Assembly: GCF_003704095.1 (NCBI RefSeq)
Contig: NW_020846522.1
Coordinates: 62,001-126,000, forward strand
Reading direction: 5' to 3'
Source of the DNA: Pocillopora damicornis
Taxonomy: Eukaryota
DNA: 64,000 bases
Shown: positions 27,653 to 32,715 of the stretch, in pieces
Layout of the letters: each line of letters opens with the position of its first letter
Numbering within the stretch: position 1 is the first letter of the stretch
Position numbers and translations under genes: made by a program
The notes under the pieces: model-generated
What the model was told of the DNA's origin: nothing
The model's database searches: none
The model's input: only the letters and a program-made list of their open reading frames with translations

Positions 27653-30600
27653 TCATTCGAAATCGCTAGTATCCTCGTCACCATCTACACCTCTGTCACT
27701 CCTCCCCGTTCTGTTTAAAGACTGTTGCGATCCCATCGAGCCTTGAGAGCTGAATCGGTTTAGCGAGGTCTGAGAACCACTTTTCGCCACATCCAGGGTA
27801 GAGGGAAATGATGCAGGGTGAAGGTCATTCTGGAATGCCTATGGACAAGTGGAGACAACGAGAGTTTATCATAGCCAGGGGTGGATGTAGGAATTTTTGA
27901 TAGGGGGGTCCTTAACTTTCATTTAATTATTTTTCCACTATGGCTTCAAAAAAATATCATTTCAAAATAACTTATGATTTAAATACTTCATATCGAGTAG
28001 TAACATAAATCCTGTCACTGCACTACTTTGATGTCAGACAAGTGTTAAAAAACCCCAAAAGTCTGATGGTGGGGAGGATCAGACCCCCTTGCACCCTCCC
28101 CCCCCCTGATTTACCTCTGATAACCAAAAGTTGAATACAAAAAGAACTTATCAGACTCTGCAAAGTGTAGAAATGCAAAAATCTAACAATCCCCTTAAGA
28201 GCATGATGGGTAATCAGGACAAAAGAGAACAAAATTCAAAAAAGAAAAATTATATGAAATTCACTTTGTGTTTTTGTTTAATTCGATCATAATGTGACAA
28301 TAATTCTGGGAACAGCTAATAAACAAGTAACAAAAAATTTCTCTAGGCAGGAAAATCTCCTTTGCCAGCAGGGCTCCTTTTTCCTCATTTTGAGTATTTT
28401 AAGCCTTGTAAACAGTTTTGTATGGGAACTTGAAGGTTATAAATAACCATTCATTAAAGGAGAACCCTTCTCCCCTCAAAACACCATGATGGAACAATCA
28501 AGCAATAGGTAGTTGAGAAAAAAAGACAGGGAAAAAGTCCTGTTGACCATAACTTTTCAACATTCAATTTGTATGGTGAGTAACAATTGCCTTGTTGCTC
28601 CAAAAGCGTCAACCAATTTGATGGTTTTTGTAAAGAGAAACATGTATGAGAAAACAGCTTTGTTTCCCACTGGCCCACACAATGAGCCAATAGTCCACTT
28701 TGCAGTTACATGCTTGGTTGCCAAGCCTTTGAACAGGAGTGAGGCTAAGGGTGACCTTGTTATGATACAAACTTTGCCGCTTTTCAAATGTAAGTGACTT
28801 TGTTATCATGCTAACAAGATACTGGTCTTTATCACAACATGGTCAACTTCAACCTCACTCCAAATCAAAGGCTTGGCAACTAAGAGCACAACTGTAAAAT
28901 GGCCCATTCATTTTTTTCTCACACACATAAATGCATGCTGAAGTACTGAATTAACAATACCTCTATGTCTTGCTCCTCATCCAGGGAACTCAGCCTTTGA
29001 AATGCAGTTGTATAGAGCTCCAGTGCTTTTGCATGAAACAACATTTGACCATGAAAAAAATTGCTAAATACCAACTGTAAAAGTAAAGATACCATAATTT
29101 ATCAAATTACATTTATTTCTTGAGTTTATCAGGCTTAATTGTTTATTCAGCTCATTAACCCTTTTACTCCTAAGATTTCTTTAGTAATTCTCTTTACTGT
29201 TAACGTTTGCGATACAATTCTCATGATGTTAATTTAAAAAATCTGGTATTATTTCAAGTAATAATCCTTCACTGATATTTTTTCTTTATTCTCAAAAGTT
29301 GTCCCCTTAATAATACATTAATATTGTAAGGAGAAGTTCTGTCTTGGTCACTCATGGGAGTGAAAGGATTAAGCAGATGCTAATCAGAGAACTCAGCCTG
29401 ATATTGGGGGAATAGAAGATATGATACTTTATTCCAGACCTAAAAATAGGCATTCATTTTCTATGATTTTGACTAACTTGTCCTTCAACACCGTTACAAC
29501 CAGCATACACTCTCACCCTGATATCTTCAATCTTCTTTCTTTCAAATTCCACCATTTGTTCTTCCAGTGTCTGTCTTGATCGGTTAGCATCAACAGTTAA
29601 CTTTTGCAGGTTCTGCTCAGCCTTGAATGTAAAAATTTACAGATTATTTAACTGGAAAAAAACTGCTGTTTTTGTATCAGCAAGCATTATGAAGTCTACT
29701 CTTAATTCTTCAAGAGAGCCATAAGAAATAAGACATTTTCCTTTGAAATACCACCATAAATGAAACCTTCATCCCCTAGAATTGAAGTTGCCACCCACCT
29801 GTGACTGTTTAACAGTTAAGAATAATATTCTCACTGAACAATGTACAATAAAACTGCAGTATGTATTCAATATGTAACAAATTTATGTCCCTAATAGGAT
29901 CCATTCAAGTCTAGCTATTGAACAAGAATCCTTGAAATTGCCTTAAAGAGGATTCAAGGATACAATTTTTCCCTTGTTCTTTGGTTCTTTGGCCCTAAGT
30001 TTATCCACTGCTTTGCGTTTTATTGATTCTTTTTCTCTAGTGACAGCCAGTTCCTTGACATATTCTCTGGCATGTTTGACATTTGTGGCATTCAAGGACA
30101 ATGGGGGAGAAACCTTTGCTTGTATGAAGTCTACCTGTAAAAAGGAAATTTTTATCATTGAAATTTTTTGGAACAAGATGGGGAGGGGGGGCTGGGGGGA
30201 GGAATAAAAATTGTGGCAAGCATGAAATCTTAACATACAAACACCAACAGTTCTCTAAAATAAGTCCACCATAACTAACAATAAGGATAACAGAACATGA
30301 ACAAATTATAAATGGAAACATTCTATAGTCCCACTCCACATTAGAGCAAAGATCCAGTCAAGTTGTCGGCAAACTACATTTAAGAGAGGCAAGGGAAGGA
30401 CCACTTGGCAAACAAAAGACCATGGTTGCAGGTATCCCTGTTAATCTTTTTTTTTTTTTCAAGACTGAGAAGAGGATAACAAAGGGTTTATAGGCGATGC
30501 ATGATTTAGCCCAAAATTAATGAGACATGTGAAGTTTTCAGAAACTAAGGCAAGGCAGGCTAACAAATTATAGTTTTCCATTTAAAATTTATGATGCTTG

Positions 30601-31802
30601 AATTTTTCTAAACTTTGTGCATGAAATAAGATCAGGACCCAGCCTGTGCAACCCTCTGTGAAGATAGACATTATTGGTGATTTTTAATCAATAAAAGGAA
30701 CTATAAATTCCTTGTTACCTGGGCTCCCATATAGTCCTGCACTGCAGCTATACTTTCACTGATACCACCTAAACTTGCTTTCATTGATGGGTACTCATCA
30801 TCAGCAAAGATATCTACACTCTTCGATAGTTTCATGCCTTTTTCTTGCAAGGATTGCAGTCCTGTAGCAAAAGCTGTAAAATCTTTTAGTAACATGCTGA
30901 AATGTCTCTCTGCAAGGTTGATTCTCTCTGTTATAACTTTGTTTTCATGGTCCCTGAAATGTAACACCAGTACATAGTTTAACCCTTTAATTCAGAAGTG
31001 AGAGATAACTAACATGAAACTTCTTAGCTTATGATGTCTATACATTATCAAGCAAACAGGTAACTCATCTGGTAGAAGTTTTTTGTCTTGATCTAATACC
31101 AAATTCTTGTAACTAATCTACAAGGAAATGAGTAGCAGCTAGAGGGGAGAATTAACAAACAGATCCTGTGAGTGAAAGGGTTAACCCTTTCACTCTCAGG
31201 AGTGAATGAAAATAAATTTCTCTTCATAATGTCAATACATATTCATGCAAAAAGGTTACAAGAAGAAAGATAGGTATCAATAGGGGATATTAATTGATTT
31301 GACAGAAAACTCTCATTCCTCAAATTCTAATGGGAAAGCATAACAGACTGTGTAAAGAATTGATATTTATATCTAGAGAGTGATCATAAGAGGGCTAACT
31401 TTGTTATGTGTGTTAATGAGGCCAGCTCTCATTGTCTGCTGACAAGCATGGCTCTCTGCCTTTTAGGGTCTGCCTCATACTGAAGGAAGGATGCTATTTC
31501 TCTCTCTCCCCCATCTAGNNNNNNNNNNNNNNNNNNTCCCTTATGAAAAAACAACTGCCTCATTGAATAACCACCAGACGATTCTGATAATTGACTCGCA
31601 AAAAAAAGGGAATTATCCATTAATGGATGAATCAGAACCAAGTTCTGCGACCGTTTTATAACTTTGTAATTAATATGCGTAATCTATTTTTCAAATCTTT
31701 AGATCGTGAAACTATACAAACTATGTTTGCAAACCTTGCTTTCGTCTCGCTTCTCATCTCACTGGGAGTAGAAGCATTCAGATTTGATGAGGACTTCTTC
31801 AT
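27653..31802 (-). CDS. CIBAR1: CBY1-interacting BAR domain protein (FAM92), 294 aa
   Basis: Exons 31735-31802, 30719-30953, 29964-30134, 29799-29804 (6 nt), 29517-29621, 28961-29074, 27653-27838, phase-consistent. Motifs AERHF..L, QDYMGAQVDFIQAKV, ISQAEQNLQ, LEEQMVEFERKKIEDI, QMLFHAKALELYTTAFQ. Confidence 0.92.
27877..28119. mobile_element. Probable MITE with G/C-rich inverted termini
   Basis: caggggtggatgtagg at the left end versus ccctgatttacctctg at the right end (imperfect inverted repeat), inside a CIBAR1 intron. Confidence 0.45.
28690..28906. mobile_element. MITE with ~40-bp imperfect TIRs
   Basis: tagtccactttgcagttacatgcttggttgccaagcctttg ... caaaggcttggcaactaagagcacaactgtaaaatggccc. 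A second copy begins at 63001. Confidence 0.8.
29155..29372. mobile_element. TTAA-flanked piggyBac-like MITE
   Basis: TTAAccccttttactcc ... ggagtgaaaggaTTAA; TTAA at both ends. Confidence 0.8.
29805..29963 (-). other. U12-type (minor spliceosome) GT-AG intron in CIBAR1
   Basis: 5' splice site GTATCCTTG; branch site TTCTTAAC (29815-29822) ending 10 nt before the intron end; no polypyrimidine tract. Confidence 0.85.
30979..31184 (-). mobile_element. TTAA-flanked piggyBac-like MITE
   Basis: TTAAccctttaa ... gagtgaaagggTTAA; reverse-orientation relative of 6746-6950. Confidence 0.85.
31181..31398. mobile_element. Second TTAA-type MITE sharing a TTAA with the previous copy
   Basis: Starts TTAAccctttcactc at the shared TTAA; ends aagagggctaa (degenerate). 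Confidence 0.65.
31519..31536. other. Assembly gap (18 N)
   Basis: Run of N in CIBAR1 intron 1. Confidence 1.
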
Positions 31803-32350
31803 CTTTCACGGGAATTTCACGGATCGTATGTAGATTCTTTGCAGTCAAAGCTTTGATAAGCCACCTTCCTGCAGTGATCTGCTCGGTAAAATTATGGACG
31901 CGATCAAAACATCACCAAGCAACCATGTAACAATTGCTTTCCTCTAAAATTTCTCCGAGGAAGATGTAGCTTTTACTTCTTACGCACTACGATCTATGTA
32001 CAAGAGTATTCAGGCACAAGCTCGCGGTAAATTCATTCAGCTAGATCTCGAGATTCTACAGCTTTAGACTACAACTACGATCGCCACTTCGTCCTGATAC
32101 AACAATTTCCCTCCTTTGTCGGGAGGTGAAGGGCACTTTTTTTCTCCTGTTACACATGCGCACTTCTTGTCGTTTCCCGGTTCGCCATCTTGTGTTTCCA
32201 AGTGAACTAAATGAGCGAATCCAAAGGCGTCTGTATTCATCGCAGCACATGTTTATTCGTTTCTCTGACCTCTGACAAATATACTGGATTGTGCAGCTTA
32301 CTCTGATGTTGTTTTAGCGCTGTTGTTTTCTGTATAATTGGACAGACTGT
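31803..32350. promoter_or_regulatory. Bidirectional promoter region (CIBAR1 / dsRBD gene) with non-coding first exon
   Basis: CpG-retaining island between divergent genes. X-box-like ATCACCAAGCAAC (31911-31923), YY1-like CGCCATCTT (~32183), donor ACT|gtaagt at 32349, acceptor at 33556. Confidence 0.55.
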
Positions 32351-32715
32351 AAGTTTTGTTGCATTCACGTGGTTTGATTAAGGAAGGAATTAAGGCTTAA
32401 CGTTTGTAGTTTTGTGTTGTTGGTCGCTAAGAAAAGGGCTTGGTATCCTTAATTGTCGTTTTTCTATCTCTCTTTCGAATTTTAGACTCTGAAATGTTGC
32501 AGTCTAGATCTAAACCCAGTTGTCCGTGTGTTTGAAGCTATAGAACTTCCATATTAGTAGTTCCAAATTGTACTGACAATAACAACCAGACCTATTTGCA
32601 CCACTTGCCAAGTATCCAAAAGGAAGAAAAGTATACTATTGTATGTTAACCTTTATAACAGTTTCCACATAAAAGTGTTGCTTGTAATGACAGGATATTT
32701 AAAGCTCCAAGATTT

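Follow-up and report, generated by a model that had tools for sequence, protein, structure and literature searches.

A six-nucleotide exon behind a predicted U12-type intron in a coral FAM92/CIBAR gene

The window, a 64,000-nt stretch of the Pocillopora damicornis genome, carries a FAM92/CIBAR gene in which six bases, TCACAG, form an exon of their own in spliced RNA, between a 159-nt intron predicted to be U12-type and a 177-nt U2-type intron. The best overall explanation, to which we give a probability of about 0.7, is that this microexon is real, ancient and near-constitutive and that the two introns beside it are removed in turn.

Gene model and family

The gene lies on the minus strand, and its seven-exon model encodes 294 amino acids and differs from the database protein P0001 in two places. 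Matches to Pfam PF06730 and a three-helix BAR fold place the product in the FAM92/CIBAR family, whose basal-body and transition-zone location and CBY1 binding are described for mammals and the fly in the parts of the literature consulted. On re-reading the window sequence, we found the coordinates and splice motifs of the original prediction to be correct. The features, in window positions and with the evidence for each in brackets, are as follows.

31735..31802, minus strand: exon 1, coding part, with the ATG at 31802 (tblastn of P0001; RNA joint skipping 781 nt)
30719..30953, minus strand: exon 2, 235 nt, Pfam FAM92 (gene model, RNA joints, Pfam match)
29964..30134, minus strand: exon 3, 171 nt, last codon ATT (Ile), following the BAR domain's basic tip loop (RNA joints, structure model)
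29805..29963, minus strand: predicted U12-type GT-AG intron, 159 nt, phase 0 (motifs; codon position the same as that of the catalogued human/mouse minor intron)
29955..29963, minus strand: U12-type donor GTATCCTTG (0/8 mismatches to the U12 consensus, 6/9 to the U1 consensus)
29815..29822, minus strand: putative U12-type branch site TTCTTAAC (branch A at 29816)
29806-29805, minus strand: acceptor AG of the 159-nt intron (window sequence)
29799..29804, minus strand: 6-nt microexon TCACAG, Ser159-Gln160, placed by the model in the first turns of BAR helix 3 (RNA joints, coral loci)
29622..29798, minus strand: U2-type intron, 177 nt, phase 0, donor CAG/GTGGGT with GTGGGT at 29798 (window sequence, gene model)
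29517..29621, minus strand: exon 5, 105 nt (RNA joints, Pfam match)
28961..29074, minus strand: exon 6, 114 nt (RNA joints, Pfam match)
27653..27838, minus strand: exon 7, coding part, through the stop codon (RNA joints, gene model)

The gene had been called CIBAR1, a name that did not hold up as one-to-one orthology. In a quick tree, vertebrate CIBAR1 and CIBAR2 formed one clade (support 100), while the window gene fell in a cnidarian clade outside it, with the deep branches open; the window gene is therefore at best co-orthologous to both. The genome also has two further FAM92 genes, both intronless (G000:C4204:465032-465667, loci L002/L010; G000:C2238:142328-142939, locus L011) and likely old retrocopies. 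The first of these has relatives in sea anemones, and its Pfam FAM92 score is above that of any exon of the window gene.

In the structure model (pLDDT 86.5), helix 3 comes right after the tip loop and spans residues 155-224, and Ser159-Gln160 fall in its first turns. The mouse protein has a basic patch, R201/R203/R205, at its distal ends (PMC12269497), and by our numbering the counterpart of that patch is about 10 positions upstream of the coral Ser159-Gln160. Residues are present at the place of the microexon in both intronless paralogues and in a Pigoraptor protein, which suggests that two introns have set two codons of old coding sequence apart. Ser-Gln would then be ordinary old residues of BAR helix 3, isolated between introns, and not a new insertion. 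A fold of P0004, a protein model without the two residues, was computed without an alignment and reached a pLDDT of 55, which is uninformative on the effect of skipping.

Short, very high-copy repeats occupy parts of introns 6, 5 and 1 (window 28569-28902, 29237-29403 and 31074-31240), and reads that link 29208-29340 to 31088-31161 across opposite strands suggest inverted repeat copies around exons 2-5. A transcribed plus-strand neighbour begins head-to-head about 100-200 nt away (window 32180-32460). Its first exon seemingly ends at 32348 on GTAAGT, and a U12-like GTATCCTTA at 32443 is apparently intronic.

The six bases in spliced RNA

To follow the exon in RNA, we used 7 of the 23 runs listed, from six studies; three are on record as RNA and four are presumed to be RNA. 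The samples with matching RNA and the nearest named proteins both point to a stony coral. A joint between 29623 and 29964 with four letters between them, which together with two shared letters give the six-base exon, was found in all seven. The support consisted of three raw reads with three starts in run X23, of which about 12% was read, and of contigs in runs X1, X3, X6, X9, X15 and X17. Transcripts joining 29964 straight to 29621 would have spoken against the exon; no such joint of exon 3 to exon 5 without the six bases was among the joints listed for the seven runs, although low-level skipping could escape such a sample, since contigs drop rare forms and raw-read depth was tiny (three joint reads). 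A processed copy is an unlikely origin of the spliced reads, as the two intronless paralogues are far diverged (33-35% identity for the C4204 copy).

These data indicate that the six bases are a real exon in spliced coral RNA, as originally predicted. It is internal, falls in the size class of at most 27-30 nt and is flanked by AG and GT, as expected of a microexon. It is likely to be near-constitutive, that is, nearly always included.

U12-type signals of the 159-nt intron

The donor of the 159-nt intron has no mismatch to the U12 consensus RTATCCTT, compared with two to six in the gene's five other introns, and its branch site has one mismatch to a TCCTTAAC-like consensus, compared with three to four in the others. 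From base composition, the chance of such a donor is 3.4e-4 and that of such a branch site in range is 5.6e-3. Branch A lies 11 nt from the AG that is used, while the AG at the end of the microexon is 17 nt away; the optimum described for U12 introns is 11-13 nt (PMC3584512). U12-type introns lack a polypyrimidine tract; the count here is 8 pyrimidines of 14, against 9-11 in the other introns. Judged by its donor and branch site, the intron before the microexon is almost certainly U12-type, in agreement with the original prediction, and its removal by the minor spliceosome is predicted.

Minor-spliceosome RNA genes are present in the genome. U11 (92.7 bits), U12 (100 bits) and U6atac (104.6 bits) exceeded their Rfam cut-offs, and the best U4atac score was 52.2 against a cut-off of 53. 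In the sole U6atac found, GCCGA replaces AAGGA, and PSE- and TATA-like elements lie upstream (L023:1501-1625, equal to G000:C1986:362277-362401). We considered this box as a novelty and dropped it, since it equals the CC variant published from cnidarians, whose poor pairing with standard donors is described as an open puzzle (PMC2396436). The genome with this variant nonetheless keeps a standard donor in the 159-nt intron. Duplex energies of the donor with U11 and U6atac did not serve as a discriminator, because ordinary donors did equally well or better in other registers.

Conservation in corals and in cnidarian gene models

Seven coral metagenome loci were retrieved, and the four with exon 3 were counted; L004 and L005 (exon 2 only) and L009 (a doubtful 29% match) were excluded. 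Each of the four has an ATT/GTATCCTT donor, a U12 branch site, a TCNMAG exon encoding Ser-Gln or Ser-Lys, and a U2 donor. The distance from the branch to the first AG is 11 or 15 nt, with no earlier AG, while the lengths of the two introns drift (446-728 nt and 497-1385 nt). In three of these corals, the microexon's own AG is 21 nt from branch A. The microexon ends in AG at all five coral loci, the window included, and both codons found there permit a synonymous non-AG ending.

At the protein level, we compared 41 cnidarian sequences, six of which did not run across the junction or started inside an intron. Short spliced Logan/JGI contigs contributed 19 coral proteins across the junction, and all of these keep the two residues (SQ, SK or LQ), though clustering at 90% could mask a two-residue skip isoform behind its representative. 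Of 16 cnidarian models from NCBI, five are right and 11 wrong at the junction: four are without exactly the two residues, three continue past the microexon into the following intron and four are otherwise aberrant. Automated annotation was expected to miss the microexon, and in these models it often does. In Nematostella, one model has Pro-Gln and another reads into a U12-like donor.

A genome-wide search for a branch site, AG, microexon and GT in this arrangement gave five matches against seven in a reversed control and missed the window's own site. One match, L018 (G000:C3096:410892-410921, minus strand), has a branch-like site, AG, six bases and GTGAGT, with ATATCCTT 297 nt upstream; we treat it as likely chance, since there is no clear gene around it.

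Bilaterian counterparts and age

Supplementary tables on human and mouse introns contain a minor intron at the same place. The donor is ATT/GTATCCTTT in human and mouse FAM92A and ATC/GTATCCTTC in FAM92B (PMC6717393), and the human introns are at chr8:93705011-93708010 and chr16:85107673-85107845, respectively (PMC6717393, PMC11039992). One of these sources classes the human and mouse introns of both genes as U12 GT-AG (PMC11039992). As in the coral gene, the GT-AG U12 donor of human and mouse FAM92A and FAM92B follows an Ile codon at a matching position in the BAR domain. The coral branch site is nearer to consensus than that of human FAM92A, and the coral introns, at 159 and 177 nt, are short. 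The CIBAR1 chains of human (8ceg) and mouse (9uhd) align without gaps and read Ile-Ser-Gln-Ala-Glu, which bears out the earlier match of Ser-Gln to the human protein.

The other edge of the exon was traced through protein models. Our profile alignment held 147 new representatives and P0001, and 138 distant rows cover the column in question. Eighteen of these are without exactly the two residues, and two more have the loss one column on; other columns have at most three such rows, bar one lineage indel with 59. Nineteen short-form proteins were looked up; every one is an NCBI/UniRef entry, with no Logan or JGI sequence among them, and they include both CIBAR1 and CIBAR2. They come from vertebrates (bat, whale, narwhal, marmot, colobus, tuatara, Xenopus, three ray-finned fishes and elephant shark) and from invertebrates (nemertean, limpet, mussel, oyster, sea spider, millipede and two spiders). 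In 9 of the 147 representatives, among them proteins of amphioxus, octopus, an annelid, a snail, a viper and sheep, Val-Ser follows Ile or Leu, as read-through into GTA TCC would give. Mammalian CIBAR gene models likewise either lose exactly two residues or read through into the donor at the place of the coral microexon. Many FAM92/CIBAR database proteins thus lack two real residues. Two Octopus sinensis entries, P0111 and P0249 (isoforms X2 and X3), differ exactly here, with Val-Ser-Ser-Lys versus Ala-Gln; the difference is either real alternative processing or a conflict between models.

Both edges of the microexon appear to be present across bilaterians, with the 3' edge read from the protein models. 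The exon downstream of the human minor intron, for which the tables consulted give no length, is probably annotated as 6 nt, to judge by the protein models. Exactly these two residues are missing from models in groups as far apart as mammals, molluscs and arthropods. The exon is therefore likely older than the split between cnidarians and bilaterians, and we consider it very likely that the microexon comes from the common ancestor of corals and vertebrates. The arrangement of U12 intron, 6-nt exon and U2 intron is likely common to human CIBAR1 and CIBAR2. The suggestion of an ancient microexon thus gains from the catalogued minor intron at the same codon and from the two-residue losses across bilaterian models.

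Removal of the two introns

How might an exon of six bases be spliced between introns of two types? We propose that U11/U12 would bind the donor and branch site over the 159-nt intron as one unit and that the minor spliceosome would pick the first AG, at the optimal distance of 11 nt. With both sites bound as a unit and the first AG optimally placed, U11/U12 would need no partner across the tiny exon. The 177-nt intron would be removed by the major spliceosome in a separate step. Since the first removal, of either intron, would fuse the six bases to an exon of normal size, the two spliceosomes need not share 6 nt. On balance, the two introns are probably removed sequentially, which would account for the data and which we find likelier than the physical coupling across 6 nt that was originally inferred.

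The original prediction also held that the microexon should be obligatory, which goes further than the evidence. Cooperative bridging of the intron by U11/U12 has been described, along with rare skipping at U12 introns and a large incompatibility of U12 and U2 sites (PMC3584512). Direct skipping should be rare here as well, as the U12 donor makes a poor site for U1 and a motif scan of the gene's introns found no U12 branch site near the acceptor of the 177-nt intron. The incompatibility argument is sound, and the coral RNA joints listed agree with it. Inclusion is not forced, however, because the microexon's own AG could be used by the minor spliceosome unaided, although the branch-AG distance likely favours the first AG.

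Retained introns bear on whether the two spliceosomes depend on each other. In five of the six contig runs (X1, X6, X9, X15 and X17), both introns are kept on one unbroken contig, and no contig with just one of the two removed was among those listed for the six runs. The depth of the both-intron contig was 56 versus 66 for the spliced form in one run, 47 versus 36 in a second and 32 versus 25 in a third, contig depth being a poor measure from which rare intermediates are dropped. Introns 1 and 2 are almost without RNA coverage. This pattern is what would be expected if the minor and major spliceosomes were interdependent at the 6-nt exon and the pair formed a slow, rate-limiting unit that sets FAM92/CIBAR output, but it fits removal in fast succession as well. 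Introns 5 (window 29075-29516) and 6 (27839-28960) are also retained in several RNA contigs, and the main contig of run X3 keeps part of intron 5 with the microexon spliced in and the 159/177-nt pair not retained; the hint of joint retention is weak for these reasons. In favour of coupling, U1 and U12 introns are known to assist each other across an exon (PMC3584512, PMC8329584), and human CIBAR1 transcripts are reported to be about 70% lower in SCNM1-mutant cells (PMC12750831). Against it, three cnidarian and two mammal-like CIBAR2 models, which are models and not reads, run on past the microexon into the U2 intron, with the U12 intron alone removed. Taken together, we regard coupled removal as unlikely.

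A bolder reading, doubtful but worth stating, would make the U12 intron, the 6-nt exon and the U2 intron an interdependent unit kept for more than 600 million years. FAM92/CIBAR would then sense minor-spliceosome activity, with both introns stalling together and a ruler of 11 versus 17 nt from branch to AG deciding the fate of two residues at the BAR domain's membrane-binding tip. If true, this unit would be the minimal natural case on which cross-exon contact of the two spliceosomes could be tested, and the high sensitivity of CIBAR1 in SCNM1 ciliopathy would be easier to understand.

We also considered whether the exon is regulated or leaky, the minor spliceosome sometimes using the microexon's own AG, an AG/GT zero-length site, and leaving the protein two residues shorter at the membrane-binding tip. 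The AG ending shared by all five coral loci despite synonymous alternatives would fit this, as would the many gene models without the two residues and the error-prone acceptor choice described for U12 introns (PMC3584512). Mouse and human tables also flag "downstream exon skipped" for this intron, with a mis-splicing index of 0.46-1.0 in mouse and 0.88 in human testis (PMC6717393). These FAM92A values may reflect real skipping or possibly a mapping artefact, since exons as short as 6 nt are difficult to align. U1 pairing at the downstream donor also accounts for the terminal AG, and in three corals the second AG is as far as 21 nt away. No skip joint was among those listed for the seven runs, none of the 19 transcript-type coral proteins is a skip form, and every short form looked up came from NCBI/UniRef and not from Logan/JGI. 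We therefore judge leaky or regulated use quite improbable. Inhibition of U12 leads to skipping of both flanking exons in human FAM92A (PMC8034651); the coral equivalent, computed from our model, would delete 177 nt in frame.

Least probable by far is that the major spliceosome has taken over the 159-nt intron and left its U12 signals as relics, for although the intron's termini are GT-AG and the sole U6atac found has the altered box, the CC variant is normal in cnidarians (PMC2396436), the donor has 6/9 mismatches to the U1 consensus, and donor and branch site are intact at 5/5 loci amid free intron drift.

Comparison with known systems

Our literature search, which had subscription papers outside its reach, found no description of this exon, its age or a U12-microexon-U2 module. 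The portions consulted of the PMC7821500 and PMC8850803 supplements held no FAM92 rows, and the FAM92A1 row in the part of the PMC4317164 supplement that was searched concerns a different, 24-nt exon. The coral exon extends a catalogued minor intron of a human ciliopathy gene, with its tiny exon, back to cnidarians. At 159 + 6 + 177 nt, the arrangement is also a compact natural substrate for asking whether spliceosomes must touch across an exon or work in turn.

Neural microexons that depend on SRRM3/4 are skipped outside neurons and have a UGC enhancer before the acceptor. The coral exon shares with them a 6-nt size, an intact frame and a place beside an interaction surface. Unlike them, it has no skip form among the joints listed from whole-colony RNA, TGC stands just before the acceptor in only one of five coral loci, and its residues are ancestral helix residues kept in the intronless paralogues. 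We therefore do not assign it to that class.

Closer likenesses are the 4-nt exon of MPC1 (PMC9929638) and the conserved microexons of plants (PMC8831610), which by their descriptions are likewise tiny, conserved, included and missed by annotation. The coral microexon may differ in having a U12-type intron upstream. Recursive AG/GT sites leave nothing in the mRNA and typically lie in introns of more than 10 kb (PMC13149111). There is an AG/GT at 29800-29797, but here the mRNA keeps six bases and the whole span is 342 nt, so we rejected a recursive zero-length site.

Close contact between U12 and U2 sites is known from the JNK (MAPK8/9) hybrid intron, the prospero twintron and exon bridging around minor introns, as described in the sources consulted (PMC3584512, PMC8329584, PMC8034651). 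The coral introns differ from these in being consecutive, neither nested nor mutually exclusive, with a spacer of only 6 nt. The parts of the arrangement are thus of known kinds and do not make a new kind of system, the minor intron being already catalogued in human and mouse. The coral arrangement is real, expressed and likely ancient: it is the counterpart of the catalogued human minor intron, followed by a microexon that annotation often drops.
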